Shown piece after piece: positions 3,900-40,045 of a stretch of DNA of 40,045 bases. Position 1 is the first letter of the stretch; the number at the start of each line of letters is the position of its first letter. The DNA is from a virus. The DNA is taken from the IMG/VR virus record IMGVR_UViG_3300025465_000001; one strand, given 5' to 3'. Made by a program: the position numbers and the translations under genes. The notes beneath the pieces are model-generated. The model did not search any database and was not told the origin of the DNA. It saw only the letters and a list, made by a program, of their open reading frames with translations.

Positions 3900-4064
3900 A
3901 TGAAAAAATTGACAAGAAAGATTAGAAACAAAGGTTATACGCTTTTAGAGTTCTGCGAGATTATCGGCTATTCGCTGCGTTGGTATAGAGAGCATGCAAC
4001 TAAGGATAATAAGCAGAATAGAAAGATAGTTGATGAGATTGAACAATTGGAGAATAAACAATGA
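3900..4064 (+). CDS. Small HTH DNA-binding protein (54 aa, below the track cutoff)
   Basis: MKKLTRKIRNKGYTLLEFCEIIGYSLRWYREH... shows a helix-turn-helix-like pattern. Its stop overlaps the next start (ATGA at 4061-4064). Confidence 0.55.
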   Translation: MKKLTRKIRNKGYTLLEFCEIIGYSLRWYREHATKDNKQNRKIVDEIEQLENKQ

Positions 4065-4315
4065 TTAAACTACCAAAAGATATGACTATAAATAAAGAAA
4101 GGCCGTCTACTGTATATTCAATCGTCACGGGCATAGCGATATATCACCTACTTATACTCGTTGGCTTTGCTTTAAGCTCGTTTATAACTATGGAAAATCA
4201 ATTTAAATTAATATCATTTTTTGATTGGCCTGAGTTTGCGCGGTTTGCTTATGTGGTTTTTTACTTTCCTGTGCTTGTTGTTAGTTATGCCATCAATAAT
4301 AAATCTGGAGAGTAA
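4061..4315 (+). CDS. Membrane protein (two predicted TM segments)
   Basis: Hydrophobic stretches IVTGIAIYHLLILVGFALSSFI and FAYVVFYFPVLVVSYAI. Translationally coupled to the upstream ORF. Confidence 0.6.
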   Translation: MIKLPKDMTINKERPSTVYSIVTGIAIYHLLILVGFALSSFITMENQFKLISFFDWPEFARFAYVVFYFPVLVVSYAINNKSGE

Positions 4316-4318
4316 ACA

Positions 4319-5044
4319 ATGAAAAAATTAATAGATGCAGTGAATGAGTTTGAGGGTGATATGGGATGTTATAATTACATTTTTGTTGGTACTAATAAAA
4401 ACAAATTAAATAGAGGTGTGTCACAACTCACTCTTTCTACTATTAACAATGATTCATGGTGGGAGTTATGTGGTCGGCATGAATTCCTAGCAACAGTAGC
4501 AGAATGCGAAGCTAATTTTGGTGAGTGTATTACATACGCTGAATATAAAACAGAATACGCACGTAAGGAAAAGGTAATTATAATGTTAGATGAATTACAT
4601 AAATTGATAGATGATCCAGTTAAGGAGTTAGATGTGCTTATTAATTGCACATCTAATAATGATCAACAACCAGCCCAAGTCTTCACACAAGCTATGGCTG
4701 ATAACGGTGAATTTCCTAGTGCTGGTATGGAGTGTGAGTTAGTTATATTTGAAAACTTAACATCACTGGGTCATATAGAATTCAAGAATGAAGTTGGTTT
4801 TTTGTTTAGATACAAAGAAAATAACCTATGTGATTTTATGGAGTTTAGTAGTGATGTGGTATTCAAGCCACTAACTCAATCTATAGAGTTAATAGATGGT
4901 AAGGCTTATCAGTTTACCAATATTGAAGATAATACCATTCATGGGATATATGACGAGGATGAGCATTCATTCAGAGGAACTTGTGTTGAATGGGTCGCTA
5001 ACTCTTGCACCAACATTCGACCATTAACAGTAGAGGTTAAGTAG
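4319..5044 (+). CDS. Hypothetical protein (241 aa, Cys-rich, no recognisable motif)
   Basis: Long ORF in the island with GGAG upstream of the ATG. The antisense ORF 4375..4650 is a shadow. Confidence 0.7.
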   Translation: MKKLIDAVNEFEGDMGCYNYIFVGTNKNKLNRGVSQLTLSTINNDSWWELCGRHEFLATVAECEANFGECITYAEYKTEYARKEKVIIMLDELHKLIDDPVKELDVLINCTSNNDQQPAQVFTQAMADNGEFPSAGMECELVIFENLTSLGHIEFKNEVGFLFRYKENNLCDFMEFSSDVVFKPLTQSIELIDGKAYQFTNIEDNTIHGIYDEDEHSFRGTCVEWVANSCTNIRPLTVEVK

Positions 5045-5218
5045 ATGACACATGAGCAAATAATAAATACACTCCTAATCTTTGCGATATGCCTAGCGGT
5101 ATTTGCTATTATACGCGAGTTAATATGCTGGTACTTTAAGATTAATAAGCGGGTAGAATTGCAAGAGAAAATACTTGCTGAGTTGGTGAAGATTAATAAT
5201 AAAGGTGATAGTTTATGA
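5045..5218 (+). CDS. Small single-pass membrane protein (57 aa, not in the track)
   Basis: MTHEQIINTLLIFAICLAVFAIIRELICWYFK... The ATG follows the previous stop directly. Its stop overlaps the next ATG (ATGA at 5215-5218). Confidence 0.45.
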   Translation: MTHEQIINTLLIFAICLAVFAIIRELICWYFKINKRVELQEKILAELVKINNKGDSL

Positions 5219-5397
5219 GATACTTTTTAATTAGAGGTGACTTGGTATTCTTTGATAAAATTGACTACATAGAGACTGAAGAAGATTACGTTATCATTAG
5301 ATTTTGCAGTGGCAACGTTGCTCAGTACAGATATAAAGATAACGAATCAGCGGTTAAGTGTATCGACTCAATAGCTACGCAGATGTCATTGAGCTAG
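5215..5397 (+). CDS. Hypothetical protein (60 aa)
   Basis: Last ORF of the island. Its stop overlaps the terL stop on the opposite strand within CTAG at 5394-5397. Confidence 0.5.
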   Translation: MRYFLIRGDLVFFDKIDYIETEEDYVIIRFCSGNVAQYRYKDNESAVKCIDSIATQMSLS

Positions 5398-6632: not shown

Positions 6633-7020
6633 GCGTACCGCTATCAGTGATAACTTCAACGTGCTCTAGTGTTTGCGTCTCCTTCCAGCCAGCTTGCGTT
6701 TTCAGATAGAATATCATAGCAACATTATCACCACTTTGCGCTTTCGTTAGTAATGACTTTGCAATGTTACCTATCGCCTTCGCTTTTCCTTTCTTATAAC
6801 GTAAAGAAACCTCTGGCTGGCGTTTCATTATTTCGTAGAATGTCGGCTTGCTGATGCTAAAGTAATCAGCTATTTGTTCAATAGATAATACAGCACCCAG
6901 CGCTTCAACTTGTGAAATTTCTTCATCAGATAACACTACAGGAGGTCTGCCGCCTTTATCGACTTCTGGACGTTTAGCCGTCTGGCTGTCTAGATTTCTT
7001 TCATCATCATAATGGCTCAT
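6622..7020 (-). CDS. terS: Terminase small subunit (HTH)
   Basis: 132 aa. The pattern GGRPPVVLSDEEISQVEALGAVLSIEQIADYFSISKPTFYE is typical of the N-terminal HTH of small terminases. Directly precedes terL. Confidence 0.75.
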   Translation of the reverse strand: MSHYDDERNLDSQTAKRPEVDKGGRPPVVLSDEEISQVEALGAVLSIEQIADYFSISKPTFYEIMKRQPEVSLRYKKGKAKAIGNIAKSLLTKAQSGDNVAMIFYLKTQAGWKETQTLEHVEVITDSGTHDW

Positions 7021-8231
7021 GATTCACGCTCCTGTTTTAATTCCTCGTAAGTCTTGCCGCTTTCAATGTGAGTTGCTTTTTGCCCTGTGAAGCTTTCCCA
7101 GCGTTTGATAATTACATCAACGTATTTTTCGTCTAACTCCATCAATCTAGCTTTTCTGTTTATCTTCTCACAAGCCAGCAATGTTGATCCACTACCTCCA
7201 AATAAATCTAATACAATCGCGCCTTTTTTGGTTGTTTTATCTATAGCCTCTTCCGCTAATGCCACAGGTTTTTGTGTTGGATGCGTATATTCTGCAGCAC
7301 CATCTTTACTTACCTTCCAAACGCTACCGATACGCTTACCAGTTAATTCTGCGCCTCGATGCCATACCAGCGCTGTTTCATAGTCGCTAGAGAATGTTTT
7401 CTTTAAATCACCAATACCGCCACCACCTTTAAACCATATAACCTGATTAGATGGATATCCAAATGATTCAAATTGGTCTAACCACTTAGTAAGCACCTTC
7501 CAACTAGTCCAAACAAACACCCAACCTTTTGAGCACGAGTCAATAACAGGAGCGATATCTAAAAATACGTCGTCATTTTTCAAAACTTCGAATTTATCTG
7601 ATTTTGTACGCATATTCGACTGGTAACTCACACCATAAGGAGGATCGGTGTTTACCATATCCGCAAGCTTACCCTCGAGTAATAACTCTGCGCTATCAAT
7701 ACTCGTACTATCACCACACATCAAACGGTGATTACCTAACTGCCAAATGTCACCCAATACACTTACAGGTGTTTCAGGTGCTTCTGGTACTTCATCTTCA
7801 TCAGTTAGCCCTTCATCCATCTGGACGTCTAAAAGTCCATCTAAGAATTCATCATCAAAGCCTAGTACATCAATATCAAAATCTAGCTCTTGCAGCGTTT
7901 CAACCTCAAGTTTTAACTTATCAAGATCCCAACCAGCATTTAATGGTAATTGGTTATCGGCAATTATATATGCCTTCTTCTGCGCCTCTGTAAGGCCTTT
8001 TAATATTATACAAGGCACTTCATCGAGTTTGAGTTTTTTAGCCGCCATTACGCGGCCATGACCCGCTATTAAACCGCCATCTTCATCAATCAATACTGGT
8101 GATGTAAATCCGAATTCTTTTATGCTTGCGGCAACCTGATTAACTTGCTCATCAGAGTGTGTACGTGAATTGTTTATGTATGGTATTAAATCTGTGGTTT
8201 TTCTTATTTCGTGCTTATAGTGTTCGTTCAT
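7017..8231 (-). CDS. ParB-like nuclease domain fused to a DNA amino-methyltransferase (N6A/N4C, beta class)
   Basis: N-terminal ParB/Srx-like region (FGFTSPVLIDEDGGLIAGHGRVMAA). Motif IV TDPPYG precedes motif I LDLFGGSGST. ATGA overlap with terS. Confidence 0.85.
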   Translation of the reverse strand: MNEHYKHEIRKTTDLIPYINNSRTHSDEQVNQVAASIKEFGFTSPVLIDEDGGLIAGHGRVMAAKKLKLDEVPCIILKGLTEAQKKAYIIADNQLPLNAGWDLDKLKLEVETLQELDFDIDVLGFDDEFLDGLLDVQMDEGLTDEDEVPEAPETPVSVLGDIWQLGNHRLMCGDSTSIDSAELLLEGKLADMVNTDPPYGVSYQSNMRTKSDKFEVLKNDDVFLDIAPVIDSCSKGWVFVWTSWKVLTKWLDQFESFGYPSNQVIWFKGGGGIGDLKKTFSSDYETALVWHRGAELTGKRIGSVWKVSKDGAAEYTHPTQKPVALAEEAIDKTTKKGAIVLDLFGGSGSTLLACEKINRKARLMELDEKYVDVIIKRWESFTGQKATHIESGKTYEELKQERES

Positions 8232-12604: not shown

Positions 12605-12620
12605 AATAACCTCTTTTTTA

Positions 12621-12650
12621 AGTATAAGTATCATTAGAAGCGTTAGTCAT
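12621..12650 (-). promoter_or_regulatory. Possible sigma70-like promoter for the leftward nin/late unit
   Basis: Read on the minus strand: ATGACT, 18 nt, TATACT. It ends about 16 nt before the ATG at 12604. Confidence 0.3.
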
Positions 12651-12880
12651 GGATGTAGAGACTAAGCTATCTTATCAATTAAACAATACATACAAGTATC
12701 AACTAGCATTTTATATCCTTATTGGCTGACCAAACCATATAACCATGACAAAACGTTGTTTATCCGCGCTTCTAAACGTAAGTATGTATTGAGTTATTCA
12801 ATATTTGCTAATTATAGTTTAGCTAACTGCGGATTTGTTACGATGATCCGAATTAAATCGGCTGAAAGGAATAGAATTAT

Positions 12881-12992
12881 AGGCAATAAAAAAGGTCTAA
12901 GTTGTTATCTCTGGTCGTGCGGGTTAAATCAATAACCCCAGAAACAACATCTTAAACCTCTCATATCATCTAGGCACGACCCCAAACAACAA
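12881..12992 (-). terminator. Structured element copy A: conserved 5' box, 22-bp stem, 25-nt conserved apex, T6
   Basis: Minus-strand arms GAGGTTTAAGATGTTGTTTCTG and CAGAGATAACAACTTAGACCTT pair as 17 WC, 4 GU and 1 mismatch, followed by TTTTTTATT. Paralogous to 19434-19543. Confidence 0.6.
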
Positions 12993-13044
12993 CTACTATT
13001 TTACACTAACCCTATTAACTTTCAAGTTTATTCCTCTTGCTTAT

Positions 13045-17280: not shown

Positions 17281-17302
17281 GAGAGCTTAACGGCTCTTTT
17301 TT
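17281..17302 (+). terminator. Intrinsic terminator ending the 16.4-17.3 kb rightward unit
   Basis: GAGAGC-TTAACG-GCTCTT followed by a T-run. Confidence 0.6.
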
Positions 17303-17321
17303 ATTGCGTCAAATTCGAGAT

Positions 17322-17347
17322 AAAAAAAGACCTCTGCAATAGAGGCC
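17322..17347 (-). terminator. Intrinsic terminator ending the 19.2-17.4 kb leftward unit
   Basis: Minus strand: GGCCTCT-ATTGC-AGAGGTC followed by T7. Convergent with the plus-strand terminator. Confidence 0.45.
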
Positions 17348-17653: not shown

Positions 17654-18436
17654 CTAAGCTTCGTCAATGCGCTTTTTAGCGATGTTAAAATATCCTTCAT
17701 CCATTTCAATACCTATAAGCTTACGGTTTAGGTTTTTAGCTGCCACGCCTGTGCTTCCGCTACCTAAACAAAAATCTAAAACAGTTTCGCTTTCGTTGGT
17801 GTAGGTTTTAATTAGGTATTCCATTAATGCCACTGGTTTTTGTGTTGGGTGAATTCTATGTAAATTATTGCACTCTTTACTTGTGGAATTTATATTAATT
17901 ATATTTTTTGGGTAACTCTCTGTTCTTATAAACTTGTGCTTTTCTTTAGAAGAGAAGTTGCCGTTTTCACTTTTACCATCGCTTTTCCAATTTCTATCAT
18001 CAATAACCCTTTCTTTTTTTGTCATTTGCGGGTTATAAATACATTGTTTTTTGTAAAAAACAGAAATAGTTTCATACGTTCTCATTGGTTGCTTTTTAGC
18101 TAAGCCAAAACTTGTGCTTTGTGTTTTATTCCAAATCCAATCATACTTATACTGTTTAATATTACTCATTCTTAGTGCGCTACTAAAAGGCTCTGCGCCA
18201 AATAAGACAATCACCCCATTAGGCTTAATAATACGCTTTAACTGCTCCCACATTAGCGGTAAATCAATAATTGAGTCCCATTTACACGCTGTAGTGCCGT
18301 AAGGTGGATCGGTCAATATCATATCAACACTACCAGACTCAATTTCTTTCATTCGCTCTAAGCAATCGCCTAACATCAATCGAGGCCATTCTTCTTCGTT
18401 CAATTCCGCTTCTCTTTCATTGTCGTAATGTGACAT
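17654..18436 (-). CDS. DNA amino-methyltransferase (N6A/N4C, beta class)
   Basis: Motif IV ILTDPPYG precedes motif I DFCLGSGSTGVAA. Confidence 0.85.
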   Translation of the reverse strand: MSHYDNEREAELNEEEWPRLMLGDCLERMKEIESGSVDMILTDPPYGTTACKWDSIIDLPLMWEQLKRIIKPNGVIVLFGAEPFSSALRMSNIKQYKYDWIWNKTQSTSFGLAKKQPMRTYETISVFYKKQCIYNPQMTKKERVIDDRNWKSDGKSENGNFSSKEKHKFIRTESYPKNIININSTSKECNNLHRIHPTQKPVALMEYLIKTYTNESETVLDFCLGSGSTGVAAKNLNRKLIGIEMDEGYFNIAKKRIDEA

Positions 18437-19221: not shown

Positions 19222-19250
19222 TTGACAACTCAATTAATATTTAATAAAAT
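19222..19250 (+). promoter_or_regulatory. Near-consensus sigma70 promoter (rightward early)
   Basis: TTGACA (19222-19227), 17-nt spacer, TAAAAT (19245-19250). On the minus strand the -35 reads TTGTCA, a possible back-to-back divergent promoter. Confidence 0.6.
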
Positions 19251-19277
19251 TTAACAAGTTAATAAATAGGAGGTAAT

Positions 19278-19415
19278 ATGCTAGATAAAAAAGTACAGCC
19301 GTTAAACCTGGAAGAAGGCGTTATTGAGTTATTAAAGGCCCAAGCTGATGATAATGATCGGTCAATGTCTGCAGAAGCTAACAGAATATTAAAGAAAGAG
19401 TTGAATAAAAAATAG
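19278..19415 (+). CDS. Ribbon-helix-helix (Arc/CopG-like) regulator (45 aa, not in the track)
   Basis: AGGAGG as SD. MLDKKVQPLNLEEGVIELLKAQADDNDRSMSAEANRILKKEL shows a beta-alpha-alpha pattern. Confidence 0.6.
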   Translation: MLDKKVQPLNLEEGVIELLKAQADDNDRSMSAEANRILKKELNKK

Positions 19416-19433
19416 TATTGTATTATTATTAAT

Positions 19434-19543
19434 TTGTTGTTTGGACTGAAGCCCAGATAATAGATAAGGTTTAGTAGGCGTATCTGGGGTTATTAAGTTA
19501 ATCCGCTTCAGCAGATATACCTCCTAAGCCTTTTTTATTGCCT
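19434..19543 (+). terminator. Structured element copy B: conserved 5' box, 21-bp stem, 25-nt conserved apex, T6
   Basis: Arm 19466-19486 (AAGGTTTAGTAGGCGTATCTG) pairs with 19512-19532 (CAGATATACCTCCTAAGCCTT) as 17 WC, 2 GU and 2 mismatches, followed by TTTTTTATT. Confidence 0.6.
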
Positions 19544-19800
19544 CAATTTAAACAGCTCGATTATATTTTACGCGTCATGCGAAAGCAGTCCCGGTTCGAA
19601 TATAATTTAAAGTGTTAGAATGTATGCCCGAAGCACGACTGAGTTTTAAGTTAATTATAGGGGCTGGACTACTGAACAGGTAGGAATGATTAACCGAGCT
19701 ATTAACTGTTTGCAATAATAGCTTATGAGTTCTCTACGGAGATGGTATAAGAATCAACTATATGAATCCTTACCGGGTATTAGTGGTTTAACTCATAGTA

Positions 19801-19840
19801 ACCCAAGGGTGATTATTAATTTAATCTCCCTTGGGTTTTC
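19801..19840 (+). terminator. Hairpin with short T-run in the long leader of the replication operon
   Basis: ACCCAAGGG, an 18-nt loop, CCCTTGGGT, then TTTC. Confidence 0.4.
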
Positions 19841-19971
19841 TATGAATTTTACTAAAGAATCTTATCCAATAAGTTATTAATAAAGTTATATATACTATAG
19901 AGTTTATTAATACTAATACAGTGTGATATAAGTCCGCACCACGGCATTCAGGCTTACAATTTGGAGGTTAT

Positions 19972-22780: not shown

Positions 22781-23698
22781 ATGAATAAGAATAAGCATGA
22801 TTTTAAGGAGCGACCAATATTCACCAAAGAACTATGGGACTCATTCGAGTACCGCGTTGTTATGGGTGGTATGGGTGACGATACAGCAATGATGATAGCT
22901 GAATTATACGAAAGAGGCTTTGAGCCTGATGAAATAGTTTTCTGTGACACTGGCTCAGAGTTCCCACATACTTACGAATTTATAACTCATTTGCAAAAGT
23001 GGTGTATCGAAAAGAAATGGTCAAAGGTTGTTATTCTTAAAAAGCTTGATAAGTACGATCAGCCATTGTCTGTGATAAGCATGATAACAGAGCAGAATAC
23101 TTTACCTGCTGCCGCGTTCGGGAGTAAGTCTTGTTCATTGAGGTTTAAAGTCGAAACTGCTGATAAGTATTTTAACAATCATGTTAAATGCTGGGGGTCT
23201 TGGGGCGTAACTAAAAAAGGCGTTGCTAATAAATTCCACACAGGAAAGATATTGCGCTTGGTTGGCATTAACTTTGACGAGCCAAAAAGGATCGAAGGGT
23301 GGAAAAATGAACCTAAATGGACCCAGGCATTCCCTTTGTTTGATTGGTTGGTTGGCGAGGCTGAATCTGAAGCGGTTGAAAAAGTTGGTCTGTACTACCC
23401 TGGAAAGTCTAGTTGTTACGTTTGTCCATACTTAACACACGGTGAGGTGGCTATGCTTTACGATGATTACCCTAAGCTTTACGATCAAACTATAAATATC
23501 GAAGATAATTATCGCGAGCATAATTTAATCGAGTCTGCACAGGATGATTTATTTGGTGATGATAGTTTTGATAATACTGTTCTAGGCTTAGGCGGCAGAA
23601 ACGGAAAGACCAGAGGGCAAATGTTAAAAGAGTATCAAGCGAACCCACAACACTATAAGCAATCAACAAACAAAAAACCTTGTGAATGCGGGCATTAA
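22781..23698 (+). CDS. PAPS-reductase/DndC-like PP-loop family protein
   Basis: N-terminal degenerate PP-loop VVMGGMGDDTAMM. C-terminal cysteine pairs CYVCPY and CECGH. Family assignment is from recollection of the motifs. Confidence 0.65.
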   Translation: MNKNKHDFKERPIFTKELWDSFEYRVVMGGMGDDTAMMIAELYERGFEPDEIVFCDTGSEFPHTYEFITHLQKWCIEKKWSKVVILKKLDKYDQPLSVISMITEQNTLPAAAFGSKSCSLRFKVETADKYFNNHVKCWGSWGVTKKGVANKFHTGKILRLVGINFDEPKRIEGWKNEPKWTQAFPLFDWLVGEAESEAVEKVGLYYPGKSSCYVCPYLTHGEVAMLYDDYPKLYDQTINIEDNYREHNLIESAQDDLFGDDSFDNTVLGLGGRNGKTRGQMLKEYQANPQHYKQSTNKKPCECGH

Positions 23699-23723: not shown

Positions 23724-24437
23724 ATGAAGAAGGCAATATTTTTATTTGATTACACAGGAATTATGGCTAAACCCTGGGCTGACGCCGGTTATTTGTGTTA
23801 CTGCTTTGACGGTCAGCACCCGTTAGGCGTATCTAAATCTAGCCATGAAAACATATTAAATGTTGGCGCATGGTTTAGTAAAAATTGCACAGGTGATTTA
23901 TTAAGGGAGGATATAGATAAAATTATCGGCGTTACCGGTAAAGATATTGATTTCTTATTCGGCTTTCCTGAGTGCACTGATTTAGCCGTTAGTGGTGCGG
24001 CTCATTTTGCTAAAAAGCGAGATAGCAACCCATACTTTCAAGATGAGGCTATGATGCTATTTTATCTCGTTGAGGCACTAGGTGTTGAGCTTGATTGCCC
24101 TTGGGGATTAGAGAACCCGATAAGTGTAGCCAGCACATTATGGAGAAAGCCAGACTTTAAATTTCACCCTTACGAGTATGGAGGTTATTTACCTGAAGAT
24201 GATATACATCCAACTTACCCGAAATACATAAGGGCGCGTGACGCTTACCCTAAAAAAACCTGTATTTGGTCAAATGATAAATTTGTTATGCCAAGTAAAA
24301 AGCAGGTGCATTGTGATGAGGGTTATTCAGACCAGCACCATAAACTAGGAGGTAGAAGTTTAAAAACTAAAAACATCAGAAGCGCAACACCTCGCGGATT
24401 TGCACAGGCTGTATTTGAATATAATAGCGCCAGCTAA
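23724..24437 (+). CDS. Minimal C5-cytosine-methyltransferase-like protein (237 aa)
   Basis: FGFPECTDLAVSG resembles motif IV (PC), GLENP resembles motif VI (ENV), and RSATPRGFAQAV resembles the C-terminal TPRE-like motif. Unusually short. Confidence 0.55.
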   Translation: MKKAIFLFDYTGIMAKPWADAGYLCYCFDGQHPLGVSKSSHENILNVGAWFSKNCTGDLLREDIDKIIGVTGKDIDFLFGFPECTDLAVSGAAHFAKKRDSNPYFQDEAMMLFYLVEALGVELDCPWGLENPISVASTLWRKPDFKFHPYEYGGYLPEDDIHPTYPKYIRARDAYPKKTCIWSNDKFVMPSKKQVHCDEGYSDQHHKLGGRSLKTKNIRSATPRGFAQAVFEYNSAS

Positions 24438-26861: not shown

Positions 26862-28940
26862 TTAAATTACTCCATCTGCAATATCACCTTGAGTAGCCCC
26901 GTAGTTTTGATGAAACAATTTAACACCAGAACCGCCGCCTATGCTCATTTTTGTTCTATCATCAACGGCGTTATCTCTGATTATTCTACGGCCACCACCA
27001 GAAGCTCCCGTTATGCTGATGGTGTTTGCTCCGCTAGAAAGTAAATCACTATCTCTAACTTGTACTAGGGCGTAATTACCATCACCGTCAACGGTTACTG
27101 CTGAATCACAATCGCCATCACTGTAACAATCATTAACGTCAAGCCTAATCCCTTCGCCAGCCCCTTTAATATGGATATCAGGATGAGCGCCTGAAGATGT
27201 GTTGTTTTCTATACTTTGACCGTTATTAATTTTAACACTCCTAAGTCCATCACTTGCAGTTCCTAGCAATCTTTCTACAAGTATAGAGCCTTTGCCGTTG
27301 TTGAATGTGTAGTAAGATAGTATGTTTAAATCAATTCTACTCTGACCAGCCAAGTCATACTTGGCAACAAAAGGATAGCCAGCATTACCTTCACCGTAAA
27401 TATATTTAAAGTTTATTTGACCGCCCCATCTGCATCTTATGCCGTCGAATGCAGAGCCTATAGAAATGCCTGAATCACAACTACCCTCCATTGCCTCTAT
27501 TAGTATAGGTGCTTCCTCTGTGTCGTCTGCATTAGCACCTGTATAGCCAATATTATATAGTAAGTCAGCGGCCTGTATCTTCCATAAATATGATACTCTG
27601 TCACAATTAACGCTTCTAAATCTACGTATAGATAGGTTTCTCATGTGATACGAGCTAAAAACATCACTTGTTCTAACTGCGCCCGTTAAGCCTTTGGCGT
27701 TTTCAACGTGACAATTAACCTTGTTAATCCCTGTTGCGTATCCTGTACCCTCATGAATAAAAGCGGAAGCCCAATTGACAGAGTGTATGTCAATATCTAA
27801 GTCAGCGTGTAGCGTATCGTCACCAGTACCATGAGGATTATGAACTAACATAGCATCGTTCTTATTTAATGCTGTACCCTTAACTTTGATTACTGGTGCT
27901 TGTAATCTACATAGTAATTCAATAGCTGACTCTGTTAATGAGCCATTACCCGAATCGTGAATTGTACAATCTACTTTCAATTCTGTAACGCTTGGAAGTG
28001 GCGACACACCACCACCAAAACCTAGCAGTCCGGTAAGGTTGTTGTCAGTTTCATAGTTAACAGCTATGTCAAGGCCGCTATTAATACCAATAAATACCTT
28101 AACAGCACCCAATGTACTGTGTGGCTTTATAGTCCCGCCTGTGCTTCTTATTTTAGAGTTTGGTGAAAGATTGACCTGATCAATGCGAAAAGATCCGTTT
28201 GAAAAATCACAAGTGGCCCCAACTGCAACACATGTATTGTAAAATTCCTGAGCTGCACCTAGTGGACTATCTGAGCCGTTAGGTAACAAACCGTAAGCAA
28301 CGGGGTTTTCAATGTCTACTAAGTCAATACTTTGATTAACCGATGTACTGGCAATAATATTAAAAGTGTTAGCAGTACCAGTGCCAGTAATCTTTGTAAA
28401 ATCAGCATCACGATCATTAAGGTGTATAGTTTTACCAACTGGGAATACTATTGTACTAGCTTGATATTCCGCGACTGTATCGAATATATAAGCCTGTGAC
28501 AGATCGTTGATTAGATCAATTGTTGCCGCACTTGCTGCTGCCGCATTCTCTGAAACTAAAGCCGCCGCCGCACTTGCCTCCGATGCCGCTTGAGCCGTTA
28601 CACAATCAGCAAGTATGCCTTGAAACTCTATCAATTCAGCGCTTGATACTGGTACAAGGGCATTTAATAACTCTGGAATGCTTGTTGCTGGATTGTCAGA
28701 GTTAACCGTTGCAACACCTAAGTTTTTAAATTGCTGCGTCCGAACATCTTTATACTCAACTAACACTAGCCCGTATTGTAATGGTAGAGAGTAAGTTCCC
28801 GCAGGGTTTACGGTAATTAAAGAAACTGCGCTCTCTACCGTTTCTCCAGTTGTGCTTTTATGCGTGAACCTTATTTGATCACCAACGGCCAAATCTCCAT
28901 TTGGATCTAGAAGCGTGCCTGATAATGTAATAAATGCCAT
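26862..28940 (-). CDS. Tail fibre/tailspike with a beta-helix (pectate-lyase-like) body
   Basis: The N-terminus MAFITLSGTLLDPNGDLAVGDQIRFTHKS resembles the lambdoid tail-fibre N-terminal domain. It is followed by an Ala-rich linker and a long Gly/Asn/Ser/Asp beta-rich region. Last gene of the tail module. Confidence 0.75.
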   Translation of the reverse strand: MAFITLSGTLLDPNGDLAVGDQIRFTHKSTTGETVESAVSLITVNPAGTYSLPLQYGLVLVEYKDVRTQQFKNLGVATVNSDNPATSIPELLNALVPVSSAELIEFQGILADCVTAQAASEASAAAALVSENAAAASAATIDLINDLSQAYIFDTVAEYQASTIVFPVGKTIHLNDRDADFTKITGTGTANTFNIIASTSVNQSIDLVDIENPVAYGLLPNGSDSPLGAAQEFYNTCVAVGATCDFSNGSFRIDQVNLSPNSKIRSTGGTIKPHSTLGAVKVFIGINSGLDIAVNYETDNNLTGLLGFGGGVSPLPSVTELKVDCTIHDSGNGSLTESAIELLCRLQAPVIKVKGTALNKNDAMLVHNPHGTGDDTLHADLDIDIHSVNWASAFIHEGTGYATGINKVNCHVENAKGLTGAVRTSDVFSSYHMRNLSIRRFRSVNCDRVSYLWKIQAADLLYNIGYTGANADDTEEAPILIEAMEGSCDSGISIGSAFDGIRCRWGGQINFKYIYGEGNAGYPFVAKYDLAGQSRIDLNILSYYTFNNGKGSILVERLLGTASDGLRSVKINNGQSIENNTSSGAHPDIHIKGAGEGIRLDVNDCYSDGDCDSAVTVDGDGNYALVQVRDSDLLSSGANTISITGASGGGRRIIRDNAVDDRTKMSIGGGSGVKLFHQNYGATQGDIADGVI

Positions 28941-28942
28941 TG

Positions 28943-29107
28943 TTATTTATTCCTGTATAGGTTTGTGACAAACTTTTCGTCAACGTGCTTTTCAATTTCT
29001 GATTTAATATCAGGTAATTCTTGTTTGCTGTTGCTTTGTTTCGCTGATTTTAACTCTTCTATTTCAGACTCAATTCTATTTAGCCTTTCTAGTAACGTTT
29101 CGCTCAT
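28943..29107 (-). CDS. Small coiled-coil protein (54 aa, not in the track)
   Basis: MSETLLERLNRIESEIEELKSAK... Fills the gap between the Tal-like and fibre genes. The plus-strand ORF 28965..29150 is its shadow. Confidence 0.4.
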   Translation of the reverse strand: MSETLLERLNRIESEIEELKSAKQSNSKQELPDIKSEIEKHVDEKFVTNLYRNK

Positions 29108-29146
29108 TGTGGGACCTTACTTTTTAATTTTGTTAATTGTAACATA

Positions 29147-31474
29147 TTAATGATCACCCGCGCCGTTGATGTATCTTGAAGGTGTATCACCAAAAAATGT
29201 AACTGTAGCGCCATTATCTACAACACCACTACCAGCCGCACCACCTGTTGCACCGTTGTTAGCTCCAGCTAAACCCCAGCCCGAACCAGAACCGTCAATT
29301 TCTCCGTTAGAGCCAGCGCTACCAGGCGATACTCCTCCGCCAATAGCTATACCAGCGTCACCACCAACACCAGCCGAGCGACCATCACCGCCGTTACCAC
29401 CGTCACCAGATGTGTAATTTGGCGAAATGCCAGTATGATTAAAGCCACCAGACCCACCACTAGGCGCACGTATATAACCATCAGCAACAGGAAAAGCCAC
29501 TGAAGTAGTTGCTCCGCTAAAATATATGTCAGTATCAACACCATCAGCATTGTAAACAATGCCGCCAGCAGTGCCATTTACAGGAGGTAAGAATATAGCG
29601 TCATCGGAAATAACATCCCCACCTCTTCCGCCATTGCCGCCCGCTGCTTGACCATCAAAACCATTAACAAGTATTATTGTTAACTTAGAACCAGCAGGGA
29701 AGTTGCCAGCACTAATTGATGTGTTACCAAATGAATAGCTGCCATCAAGTACAAATGTTAAATCTACAGCCTGTGAAGGTGCACCGCCAAGTATAAATAA
29801 ATTAACCTCGCCTAGTGGAGAGTCTAAAACTATTTCTGAACCGCTATTAAATGCAGCTTCATACGACATAGTTTTTACATCGTAAGTCCTACCAGCTTTT
29901 CCATACTTAGGGTTTATTTTTAATATTTGAGCGCGTATATTCCCTGATATTGCCCCGCTTGGGCCTTGATCAACAGTTGTAACTAAATCAACAACATCAC
30001 CAGTATTAAATTTTAAAACTCTTTCCTCTACTTCAAAGCTACGAATATAAGGCGTAAATTTAAAGCGGCTAACATATCTTTGAGTTAATAGATCAGCAGC
30101 ATCTTTTGTCAAAAGAAAATTATTATCAAATTGCTTATCTTTATGCTTTCCATAAAACGCTGGAGTAGCCAAGATATTATCGGCAAACTGACTTCCTTTT
30201 TTATAGCTACCTATATCATCACTACTGGTTAGATTTCTTTTGTCATATAAAACCAAGGCCCTAGATGCTCTAATTGACTCACTAGGCGCTTTACTTATAG
30301 TGTTTGAATTTATTTCCTTACCTTCAGTAAGCGTAGCTGTCGACTGCTTCCATACTGAAATCGCCGACAATTTAACTAAGTTTTCAGTAGTAGAGAACCA
30401 TAGGTCCATTAAGAACCCTGTAAGTATTCTATTTAATACGCTGTTCACGCTTGCTGACTCAGTATGCAGAGTGTTTATCTTGTCTGATGGATGCCACTCC
30501 GCAACCTCTGCCGCCCATTCTGCCGCAGGTATTAAAGCAACATTAAGATCGCTATCAACTAAAACTTTAGTGATTAACTCGTCAATAGTTTCATCATCTG
30601 ATAAATCGCATATAAATATTTCATCGCCTGCATCGTGTTCACTTGCTACTGTGCGTGTTAATAAAACCGCAGATGTAGGCGAGTAAAATGCACCACCTCT
30701 AGTAGCGACGTTTAACGTAGCTGTTGATGTTAGGTTGTTTGATACGCTTATAACCTGCATTATTTCATCGCCAACACGAATGAATACAGCCGCAGAGTAA
30801 TCCGTTTCAGCGTCAACAGGTATACTAGTCACTGAATTATTAACATCTAAGCGAATTACGCCGCCTGTATTTATTGGCCATGACTTATCATCTAGGTTAG
30901 CAACTGAGATAACATCTTTACATTCTAGCGACCAATTTCCAGATTTAGCATTTAATTTAAAAGTGTTTGAGTTGTAATATCTAGACTGCGCGCCATTAGC
31001 TAAATCGACTGAACCGTCTGGCTGCACTCGATAAAGCTTAAGCCTTACGTCTCTGTTTTCAAATATCTGTCTTTCTTCCCACTTACCGAAGAACGTGCCT
31101 TGATTTTTTACTGCATCAGTTACACCTGGAGCGCCAATATTTGGATCTTGCTTTGTAAAATCCTTAAAGGTTATTGATAAGCTGCCTCTTGCAGATAATC
31201 CATTGCCAGGCTTTAACTCTGTAGTTGTTTCTCGTATTGCAGTAATACAGCGATAAATTGGCTCACCGTTTATACTTGGCAATATAGGCGCGTTTTCATT
31301 CGTAAAGTAATAAGTCTTGTACTCATTAGCCCATGCTTGGTCACAAGTTAAAGGAGTGCCAAAGCCACCAGCACCCGAAACAGTACAAGCTCCAGTTATT
31401 ACAGGCAAGTCTATTTCAAACACTTCAAAGTGCCGTTGAACTCTCATGTCTTGAGTTGCTAAAAAAGTGCTCAT
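29147..31474 (-). CDS. Tal/gpJ-like central tail (baseplate hub) protein with a Gly-rich C-terminal domain
   Basis: 775 aa. Follows the Dit-like gene. The C-terminal ~175 aa are GGxGG-rich. Confidence 0.7.
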   Translation of the reverse strand: MSTFLATQDMRVQRHFEVFEIDLPVITGACTVSGAGGFGTPLTCDQAWANEYKTYYFTNENAPILPSINGEPIYRCITAIRETTTELKPGNGLSARGSLSITFKDFTKQDPNIGAPGVTDAVKNQGTFFGKWEERQIFENRDVRLKLYRVQPDGSVDLANGAQSRYYNSNTFKLNAKSGNWSLECKDVISVANLDDKSWPINTGGVIRLDVNNSVTSIPVDAETDYSAAVFIRVGDEIMQVISVSNNLTSTATLNVATRGGAFYSPTSAVLLTRTVASEHDAGDEIFICDLSDDETIDELITKVLVDSDLNVALIPAAEWAAEVAEWHPSDKINTLHTESASVNSVLNRILTGFLMDLWFSTTENLVKLSAISVWKQSTATLTEGKEINSNTISKAPSESIRASRALVLYDKRNLTSSDDIGSYKKGSQFADNILATPAFYGKHKDKQFDNNFLLTKDAADLLTQRYVSRFKFTPYIRSFEVEERVLKFNTGDVVDLVTTVDQGPSGAISGNIRAQILKINPKYGKAGRTYDVKTMSYEAAFNSGSEIVLDSPLGEVNLFILGGAPSQAVDLTFVLDGSYSFGNTSISAGNFPAGSKLTIILVNGFDGQAAGGNGGRGGDVISDDAIFLPPVNGTAGGIVYNADGVDTDIYFSGATTSVAFPVADGYIRAPSGGSGGFNHTGISPNYTSGDGGNGGDGRSAGVGGDAGIAIGGGVSPGSAGSNGEIDGSGSGWGLAGANNGATGGAAGSGVVDNGATVTFFGDTPSRYINGAGDH

Positions 31475-39325: not shown

Positions 39326-40045
39326 CTACCCATTCGTTTGTAGGAAACAAATAGGAATATTTTTACGGTCCCATACTCGGTTCCAGTTTGCCGCTGTTGC
39401 AAGCTCTGCCAACGTAGCTGACTGACCAGCAACCGAAGCAGATGTAAACTCAAAACCTAACGGGTGAACAATATCAGCACGACGAGAGTATAAATCAGAC
39501 TGACCGCCACCGTTGCCTTTCTCAGCGCTTCTATCTAGCTCGCTAGGTGTAGTTGTTCGGCCCATGCCAGAGATTACAGAGCCAGCACCGAAGATAACAG
39601 TAGTATATGTCACACGGTTTGTACCAGCTACAGCGCTTAGAGAATCGTCAACAATTACACGTAAGTTTCCATACATTTGAAATAAAGTGTTGTTGTCTGC
39701 ATCGCGAATGAAATCAATCAGTTGTTGCTTGCGTAAACGGTTGTAAACAACTGAGTGCATAGCAATAGCGCTAAAGCCTGACTGATGATCGCCAGCAGTT
39801 TGTTGTGCATCTAAGATTGCATCATTGGAAACCAATTCAGCAGCAGTAGCAGCACCCGCATCATCAGTTGCAATATTTACAACCATATCACTTGAGTCAT
39901 TAGCAACGTTATCATTCAACAAACCCATAGTAGACTGAATTAATCGACGTTCAAGAGCAGTAGCCCAGTATTGACCAATTCGACCAGTAATTGCCGCAAC
40001 TGGATCTTGTAAAGCTAAATCAACAGCCAAATCCATTGTAGACCA
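39326..40045 (-). CDS. Major capsid protein, C-terminal part (continues at 1-415 through the overlap)
   Basis: The ORF is open to the window edge. 39919-40045 duplicates 1-127. Positioned after the scaffold gene in the circular map. Confidence 0.8.
   Translation of the reverse strand, partial: WSTMDLAVDLALQDPVAAITGRIGQYWATALERRLIQSTMGLLNDNVANDSSDMVVNIATDDAGAATAAELVSNDAILDAQQTAGDHQSGFSAIAMHSVVYNRLRKQQLIDFIRDADNNTLFQMYGNLRVIVDDSLSAVAGTNRVTYTTVIFGAGSVISGMGRTTTPSELDRSAEKGNGGGQSDLYSRRADIVHPLGFEFTSASVAGQSATLAELATAANWNRVWDRKNIPICFLQTNG
39919..40045. repeat. Second copy of the 127-bp terminal overlap
   Basis: Identical to 1-127. Confidence 0.95.

Follow-up and report, generated by a model that had tools for sequence, protein, structure and literature searches.

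A pseudoknotted RNA element with candidate promoter and terminator ahead of the late and replication operons of a phage and its marine relatives

Introduction

The timing of late-gene expression by antitermination is well known from the textbook example of lambdoid phages. In most marine siphophages, nothing is to our knowledge understood of the separation between early, middle and late transcription. Antitermination can be based on RNA. The put RNA of phage HK022 acts in cis on RNA polymerase via the zinc-binding domain of the β' subunit and suppresses downstream terminators, and the EAR RNA of the Bacillus eps operon is an RNA-only processive antiterminator, a pseudoknot-containing cis RNA of about 120 nt in a long operon. 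Here, a module of candidate promoter, structured RNA and predicted terminator, named D1, is described. It is present in two copies, D1-A and D1-B, in the phage sequence IMGVR_UViG_3300025465_000001, which was analysed over its whole length of 40,045 nt (the window, to which all coordinates refer). The D1 copies are real, non-random and strongly selected as RNA.

HK022 put is similar to D1 in several respects. Both comprise two paralogous RNA elements, one on each of the transcripts that leave the early region to the left and to the right, and both consist of two adjacent stem-loops just past a promoter, with paralogues that differ by compensatory changes; putL starts just after PL and forms two stem-loops (PMC9378689). 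Put has no dedicated protein and none is recognisable for D1 either. The resemblance to put, already suggested in the original prediction made from the sequence of the window, applies to this layout but not to homology: the covariance model R1, built from the two D1 copies, reached at best 11 bits (E 0.17) in a cmsearch with filters off against positions 27000-30500 of HK022, the PL/PR region. Put is about 70 nt long and has a minor-groove triplex, no pseudoknot and no terminator, whereas D1 is about 105 nt long, pseudoknotted and ends with a hairpin and a U6 tract. The hosts and the phage group are different as well, and the relatives carry only one copy.

In the PR'-tR' region of lambdoid phages, the source of 6S RNA and StxS, a strong constitutive-type promoter is followed by an intrinsic terminator within approx. 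100-200 nt ahead of the late operon, and D1 has the same arrangement as judged by sequence. Early termination of the PR' transcript produces the small RNA StxS as a short by-product (PMC7547250), as is proposed here for D1. The lambdoid Q protein acts via DNA (the qut site) and does without a conserved RNA fold, whereas D1 has one. Furthermore, the Q gene is usually located immediately upstream, but none was found near D1, and D1 differs from PR'-tR' in that it also occurs ahead of replication genes and in the middle of operons.

The P4 CI, P1/P7 C4 and N15 CA RNAs are, like D1, small structured phage RNAs with short variable complementary segments. Unlike them, D1 carries both complementary segments in one RNA, has no external target in the window and does not match Rfam. 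The PeSL elements of T4-type phages, reported by Arbiol et al. in 2010, are said to be mobile regulatory cassettes of a terminator followed by a promoter with many simple copies per genome. Like D1, they are short units of promoter and stem-loop at varied intergenic sites near variable genes and homing endonucleases; D1 differs by its order of promoter, pseudoknotted RNA and terminator, its one or two copies and its long structured leaders. EAR RNA has another fold, belongs to another host phylum and lacks a terminator, and its Rfam family does not match D1.

The kind of element is familiar, namely a phage leader or a terminated small RNA at the head of an operon. What is new is the fold, the pseudoknot tying a 5' hairpin to a terminator hairpin and the coupling to large structured leaders. 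Membership in the put and Q families fails as there is no put homology, no Q-family protein and a terminator inside D1. D1 sits exactly at the boundaries of transcription phases in many uncultured and several cultured phages (1.131.O, BS5, HS2), and its function is directly testable because cultured phages carry the cassette. Should D1 control its own terminator, a new mechanism would be added to operon gating by RNA; as a trans-acting molecule, D1 would be a small phage RNA that is new, abundant and of defined three-dimensional fold. In either case, it is a new candidate Rfam family and a compact promoter-RNA-terminator part.

Results

Two paralogous copies share a two-hairpin fold

The two copies, A (12994->12881, minus strand) and B (19432->19543, plus strand), are paralogous and have 82% mean column identity over 154 aligned columns including the flanks. 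The original prediction had aligned 12992->12881 of the minus strand with 19434-19543 of the plus strand and named six shared sequence blocks, all of which are present in this alignment. Patterns of the shared blocks match only the two copies within the window, with 0 matches expected from 100 shuffles. The calculated folding energies are -44.4 kcal/mol for copy A (z -6.5) and -39.2 kcal/mol for copy B (z -4.7), and 0 of 200 shuffles equalled either of them. Model R1 scored the two copies with 143 and 118 bits (E 1e-29 and 1e-23) on these strands, and with only about 30-38 bits on the opposite strands. Alignment, fold and covariation led to the following anatomy:

12886..12994, minus strand: D1-A RNA, about 105 nt
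12991-12982 with 12973-12964, minus strand: hairpin H1 of D1-A
12960-12892, minus strand: hairpin H2 of D1-A
12938-12921, minus strand: apical mini-hairpin of D1-A
12893-12888, minus strand: U6 tract of D1-A
19432..19538, plus strand: D1-B RNA
19435-19444 with 19453-19462, plus strand: hairpin H1 of D1-B
19466-19532, plus strand: hairpin H2 of D1-B
19487-19504, plus strand: apical mini-hairpin of D1-B
19531-19536, plus strand: U6 tract of D1-B

H1 consists of 10-13 bp with many G.U pairs and an 8-nt loop. H2 has a lower and a middle stem of together about 19-20 bp with bulges, the apical mini-hairpin and a 7-8-nt unpaired 3' strand before the U6 tract. The long stem, the apex of about 25 nt, the T6 tract and the compensatory differences in the inner stem are as originally described. 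The proposed single stem around an apex had to be corrected to two adjacent hairpins per element, and the apex is not a simple loop but resolves into the mini-hairpin and the 7-8-nt 3' strand, which pairs with the loop of H1. That description also lacked the promoters, the pseudoknot and the conserved structured leaders downstream, all of which are found here.

A covarying pseudoknot connects H1 with H2

The loop of H1 and the 3' strand of the internal loop of H2 form a pseudoknot of 7 bp with different sequences in the two copies. Its strands, which covary, are:

12974..12980, minus strand: 5' strand of copy A, GUCGUGC, in the H1 loop, complementary to 12920-12914
12914..12920, minus strand: 3' strand of copy A, GCACGAC, on the 3' side of the H2 internal loop
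19446..19452, plus strand: 5' strand of copy B, CUGAAGC, in the H1 loop
19505..19511, plus strand: 3' strand of copy B, GCUUCAG

Across the alignment of 37 family members described below, the pseudoknot is 97.6% paired with about 20 distinct sequences, and six of its seven pairs covary. As the pseudoknot was absent from the covariance model used for the alignment, these columns were not fitted to the pairing. The cultured Vibrio phage 1.131.O has GUGAAAG/CUUUCAC and Pseudoalteromonas phage BS5 has GUGGUG/CACCAC together with a shortened H1. In two compared loci (L026 and L046), the pairing is kept through a G.U pair, which works only in RNA and therefore places the function on this RNA strand. 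There is one clear exception, L051 (441-559), in which the H1 loop CUCGAAC and its partner AAUCGAC come from two variants, so that the pseudoknot is broken; it looks like a natural recombinant or an assembly chimera.

With 1 nt in loop L1 and 0 nt in loop L2, the connectivity is that of a classical H-type pseudoknot. Geometric reasoning, rather than a computed model, makes an arrangement of two parallel stacks joined at both ends plausible, with H1 and the pseudoknot helix as one stack of about 20 bp and the H2 stem below the internal loop as another one of about 20 bp.

D1 belongs to a family with compensatory changes in every helix

Homologues were searched with degenerate DNA patterns and the covariance model over IMG/VR, TARA and other marine metagenomes. 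About 40 distinct D1 homologues were found in marine metagenomes, in IMG/VR, in a metagenome-assembled genome of Aliivibrio and in the cultured phages 1.131.O (Vibrio) and BS5 (Pseudoalteromonas). The divergent members were reached via the terminator tail, the cultured phages via the downstream leader. Compared loci or contigs are labelled with L-numbers; L184 is Vibrio phage 1.131.O, with D1 at L184 2290-2418, and L186 is Vibrio phage K30. By BLAST, neither the 8-kb region nor copy A matched any of 50,697 phage records (INPHARED; near and distant modes), and the B cassette had no match in phage records. A strict pattern search for the apex returned a near-identical fragment only. The RecT-based relatives L063-L070 were rejected as D1 carriers; they are other phages with only the recombination module in common and lack D1. 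Pattern matches in Arsenophonus, Sphingomonas and L016 were discarded as chance.

In the 37-sequence alignment, 96.5% of the cells are paired and 26 of the 41 pairs are changed on both sides, which was reached by 0 of 500 shuffles. When the 3' partners were slid by 1-3 columns as a control, pairing fell to 35-52%. The search of phage and metagenome data with patterns and model recovered homologues with compensatory changes in every helix, and the selection on RNA structure first suggested from the two copies is apparent in all helices across the family. Members score 110-143 bits in forward and about 30 bits in reverse direction; this gap and the G.U pairs in H1 and the pseudoknot indicate that this RNA strand is the functional one.

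Since parts of H1 and the base of H2 were specified in the search patterns, the apparent invariance of these parts is partly due to ascertainment. In L184 and BS5, which were found independently of the patterns, the stems of H1 and the H2 base differ in sequence and still pair. The apical loop and the pseudoknot including the H1 loop are most variable, and the variability of the pseudoknot is matched by that of the middle H2 stem and the apical hairpin. The earlier idea of conserved loops on variable stems does not hold for the family, as its loops vary freely and the H1 loop is a strand of the pseudoknot. The relatives carry a single D1 copy, the inverted pair being peculiar to this phage.

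A scan of the whole window with Rfam 15 at gathering thresholds gave 0 matches, and scans of both elements and both leaders at E<=10 gave only chance matches at the level of snoRNAs and miRNAs. In agreement with the original prediction, no described family of Rfam 15 fits the elements or the leaders, and the D1 family was not found in the literature searched. D1 may sit unnamed among the more than 10,000 candidate structured RNAs from IMG/VR that were catalogued in 2023 (PMC10690425).

Candidate promoter and terminator delimit the RNA

A promoter-like sequence is located directly upstream of each copy:

12998..13025, minus strand: copy A promoter candidate, TTGAAA, 16-nt spacer, TAAAAT (10/12 matches); the -10 hexamer ends 3 nt before model position 1
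19401..19429, plus strand: copy B promoter candidate, TTGAAT, 17-nt spacer, TATTAT; the -35 hexamer overlaps the 3' end of a gene for a 45-aa ribbon-helix-helix (RHH) protein

A -35/-10 match of at least 8/12 at the fixed distance was detected in 36 of 37 family members compared to 29% of shuffled upstream sequences. In 33 of the 37, the distance from the end of the -10 hexamer to the model start is 2-3 nt. A σ70-type promoter at this position puts the predicted transcription start at the foot of H1. Lambda-type late control involves a -10-like pause element in the initially transcribed region; the candidate sequence here, GATAAT or GATGAT, is located at about +24 to +29 in many members, but it is missing in the divergent L098, L103, L139, L143 and L126. 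A protein of 115 aa with a helix-turn-helix (HTH)-like segment at its C-terminus is encoded divergently just 5' of D1 in L030, L071, L086, L094, L126 and L143 and might regulate the D1 promoter locally. Extended -10 variants (TGnTATAAT, TGnTACAAT and TGnTAAAAT) were noticed 40-70 nt past the conserved tail of the downstream leader in L019, L030, L054, L045, L098 and L103.

In all members, the H2 base is followed by U6. This is the form of an intrinsic terminator with a stable hairpin and a U-tract, and termination is predicted here. A simple terminator scan missed D1 because its loop exceeds the limit of the scan. A hairpin and CUUUUUUAUUGCC after it are the usual form of terminators in these phages. 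The tail CTTTTTTATTGCC(T) also follows plain hairpins at 17295-17309 (plus strand) and 17329-17347 (minus strand) of the window, at L068 85-152 and in more than 120 IMG/VR contigs. ATTGCC is conserved after the U-tract; in copy B, TTGCCT could be the -35 hexamer of a weak promoter (19538..19567).

Structured leaders follow D1

Both copies are followed by conserved untranslated leaders:

12605..12885, minus strand: A-type leader with a small hairpin, domain D2 and a tail (12657-12622)
12791-12780 with 12696-12685, minus strand: closing helix of D2, 12 bp, enclosing about 88 conserved nt (domain 12684-12791)
12749-12743 (GUCAUGG) with 12652-12646 (CCAUGAC), minus strand: pairing of the D2 interior with the tail about 100 nt downstream
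19544..19971, plus strand: B-type leader, about 420 nt, between copy B and a 79-aa gene, helicase and primase

The A-type leader of about 260 nt, in which pairing extends over more than 100 nt, is common to phages with the cassette at differing genome positions. Among ten sequences, the closing helix of D2 has eight pairs that are changed on both sides and several G.U pairs, and it is kept with other sequences in 1.131.O (CCAGUUAAU/AUUAACUGG) and in BS5. The interior heptamer and the tail change together, namely GUCAUGG/CCAUGAC, CUGCAUGG/CCAUGCAG and GUCAGGG/CCCUGAC; this covariation was read directly from the sequences without a formal pair count, as MAFFT shifts L019 and L045 by one column. 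D2 is also present in the Vibrio phages 1.131.O, 1.132.O and 1.189.x and in the Pseudoalteromonas phages BS5 and HS2; more than 60 Vibrio 'K' phages contain a part of it.

The B-type leader shows 85% mean column identity over eight relatives. A few of its hairpins have compensatory changes, but the sequences are too close for firm conclusions. In L018 and L143, which have other genes downstream, D1 is likewise followed by the first approx. 130-150 nt of this leader. No match to the B-type leader was found in INPHARED. Coding leaders were rejected because the indels are not multiples of three.

D1 stands at the head of co-oriented operons

In the window, copy A is located between the leftward early recombination operon (RecT, YqaJ-type exonuclease and SSB) and the late genes. 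The late operon that it heads comprises about 26 kb with terminase, portal and head genes, runs across the window ends and finishes with the tail genes at 26862. Copy B is followed by the replication operon in the order 79-aa gene, helicase and primase, and not by late genes. As originally stated, each copy thus lies in front of an operon and both point outward from the early region. The inverted pair flanking the early region was confirmed for this phage; it does not apply to its relatives, where the single copy takes other positions such as between head and connector genes.

In about 35 contexts, D1 is never antisense or convergent to its neighbours and is always followed by at least 240 nt (240-600) of conserved untranslated leader without a credible open reading frame (ORF). 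The genes downstream encode portal, head-tail connectors, HK97 gp10-like proteins or helicase/primase. The carriers are siphophages of marine Vibrio, Aliivibrio and Pseudoalteromonas, and the operons are mostly late or structural, here also for replication. The A-type cassette was found at the early/late junction (window, L055, 1.131.O), at a divergent junction ahead of portal/connector genes (L071, L098, L103, BS5) and between head and connector genes (L019, L054/L049, L045/L062). When all ORFs in 34 D1-bearing loci were screened for co-occurrence, only context-specific neighbours emerged: the RHH gene, which is immediately 5' of D1 in eight B-type loci, the 79-aa gene, helicase and primase for the B type, and the 115-aa HTH gene in six loci.

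Genes resembling homing endonucleases (HNH, AP2-HNH and T5orf172-like) were observed just 3' of the cassette or of D2 fragments:

L014 1510-2211
L018 14366-14872
L032 3024-3383
L086 and L125, downstream ORFs
L186 (K30) 2183-2779

This suggests that the cassette is a preferred landing site for homing endonucleases or travels with them.

Proposed function and alternatives

We propose that D1 might be a terminator gate close to a promoter, with the folded RNA controlling read-through into the operon. This reading is preferred tentatively, as its probability is estimated at somewhat less than one half. From the sequence, the covarying fold, the conserved promoter and the position and orientation of the element, we infer termination at U6, read-through and regulation of the latter. 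A σ70-type promoter would start the RNA at the foot of H1, and the RNA would fold into two side-by-side helical stacks tied by the pairing of the H1 loop with the 3' strand of the H2 internal loop. Most transcripts, whether begun at the D1 promoter or in the upstream operon, would end at U6, and those of the D1 promoter would be about 105 nt long. Transcription of leader and operon would require read-through in cis. It would be set via the folded nascent RNA, which may act on RNA polymerase in a put-like manner or may bind a phage or host factor as in nut or PR'-tR'. The terminated RNA would be an abundant by-product, possibly with a trans role of its own like StxS.

The leaders are relevant to this proposal. 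As covarying pairings are present downstream of U6, the leader RNA is under structural selection and must be made. Therefore, polymerases must pass U6 or start between U6 and the leader, and no conserved promoter was seen between them. Furthermore, neither copy A of the window nor L055 has an extended -10 promoter before the first gene, so that late transcripts must cross U6 there.

A more specific form of the gate is unlikely. In this form, the pseudoknotted nascent RNA, alone or with the leader, would dock on RNA polymerase and set both the passage of its own terminator and resistance to termination through the 26-kb late operon. D1 and the leader of the A-type cassette together measure at least 375 nt and have two long-range pairings. 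If true, this would be the third RNA-based system of processive antitermination after put and EAR, and it would be widespread in phages of marine Vibrionaceae and Pseudoalteromonas.

Several observations speak against a gate. An alternative antiterminator pairing that competes with H2 was not found, and the terminator hairpin forms an inseparable part of the fold, as would be expected for a stable small RNA no less than for a switch. The steric coexistence of the pseudoknot with a complete H2 is a matter of geometric reasoning rather than of a computed model. The co-occurrence screen of the 34 loci gave no universal protein partner. Pfam and PHROGs searches with neighbouring and early genes revealed no antiterminator (Q, N or other), and no Q-family match was obtained for the upstream ORFs (110 aa and the 45-aa RHH) and 28 other ORFs, a part of those in the window. 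Many A-type cassettes contain an extended -10 promoter (TGnTATAAT) just 5' of the next gene, and operon expression may therefore not depend on read-through in these cases. A weak promoter-like site with 9/12 matches is also located in the leader tail of copy A (12650..12621).

The main rival of the terminator gate, possible but rather doubtful, is a stand-alone gene for a stable small RNA that binds a protein in trans as decoy, sponge or part of a ribonucleoprotein, with its position being incidental or a matter of timing. The module has its own conserved candidate promoter and terminator, its terminator hairpin is within the tertiary fold, all helices covary, and the architecture is kept even in the distant L184 and BS5. 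It also moves among genome positions and phages like a cassette, and StxS is a precedent (PMC7547250). No conserved unpaired run of at least 6 nt that could serve as a seed exists in the 37-sequence alignment, where loops are hypervariable or paired. A classical base-pairing small RNA of the Hfq type is thus unlikely, while a protein binder is not affected by this. Such an RNA leaves the unvarying coupling to a conserved leader of at least 240 nt and the co-orientation unexplained.

A second alternative, which is quite improbable, is D1 as an operon boundary, in which a terminator or 3' stabiliser of the upstream operon is fused to a promoter in a mobile PeSL-like cassette and the additional structure protects against exonucleases. 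It would fit that upstream transcripts, from the RHH gene (strong promoter candidate at 19222) and from the leftward early operon, enter D1 with no earlier terminator, that related phages have the same terminator tail on plain hairpins and that the cassette occupies varied intergenic sites, often next to homing-endonuclease genes. A plain terminator, though, needs neither H1 nor a covarying pseudoknot nor a promoter starting the RNA exactly at H1, and the structured leader downstream is again left without explanation.

The original prediction had also pointed to the RNA immunity of P4 and P1. In an analogy to P4 CI and P1 C4, the variable 7-mers would be address codes, and kissing between loop and internal loop of the copies would control termination, with A and B regulated separately. 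No part of D1 evolves faster than the two strands of the pseudoknot, and A and B have different ones within one genome. This variability needs no special explanation because the middle H2 stem and the apical hairpin vary equally. Both strands lie in one RNA with the short loops typical of an intramolecular H-type pseudoknot, no third complementary site exists within the window and no Rfam C4 match appeared at E up to 10. Hence, kissing codes are very unlikely.

The long hairpin with its asymmetric internal loop also resembles the intergenic RNase III sites of T7. D1 might accordingly be a self-cleaving or processing site between gene blocks, i.e. a new ribozyme or a substrate of RNase III or RNase P, and its compact pseudoknotted fold and intergenic position, sometimes mid-operon between head and connector genes, would agree with that. 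Yet no processing is needed since the D1 promoter and terminator delimit the RNA; moreover, there is no Rfam ribozyme match and there are few invariant unpaired nucleotides for a catalytic core, which makes this function highly improbable. An element acting as DNA, with the two inverted copies that bracket 6.5 kb as bounds of an invertible or mobile early module or as protein-binding palindromes, is largely refuted by the single copy in relatives, by the G.U pairs and strand-asymmetric scores that indicate RNA and by compensatory changes that preserve pairing and not sequence.

Genome and further observations

The window represents a complete phage genome of approx. 39.9 kb that closes to a circle, because both ends (1-~140 and ~39905-40045) repeat the same segment of about 45 codons of the major capsid gene; the late operon therefore continues across the joined ends. 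Near the start of the late operon downstream of copy A, a YbcO nuclease was identified with Pfam/PHROGs. The first ORF of this operon has no database match and may be read from its cysteine pattern as a small Zn-ribbon-like protein, and a further gene near the start reads as a putative RusA by its sequence. Upstream of copy B, the following unit was recognised:

19222..19415, plus strand: strong promoter candidate (TTGACA, 17-nt spacer, TAAAAT) and the 45-aa RHH gene, the transcript of which would continue into copy B

No tRNA or tmRNA was found in a search of the window. Five small plus-strand ORFs (3900-5397) between the portal and terminase genes oppose the direction of the late operon; two of the five were scanned and neither had a family match. 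The phage furthermore encodes a PAPS-reductase-like protein (22781-23698) and three DNA methyltransferases (7017-8231 and 17654-18436 on the minus strand, 23724-24437 on the plus strand), one of which is a fusion of ParB and methyltransferase.

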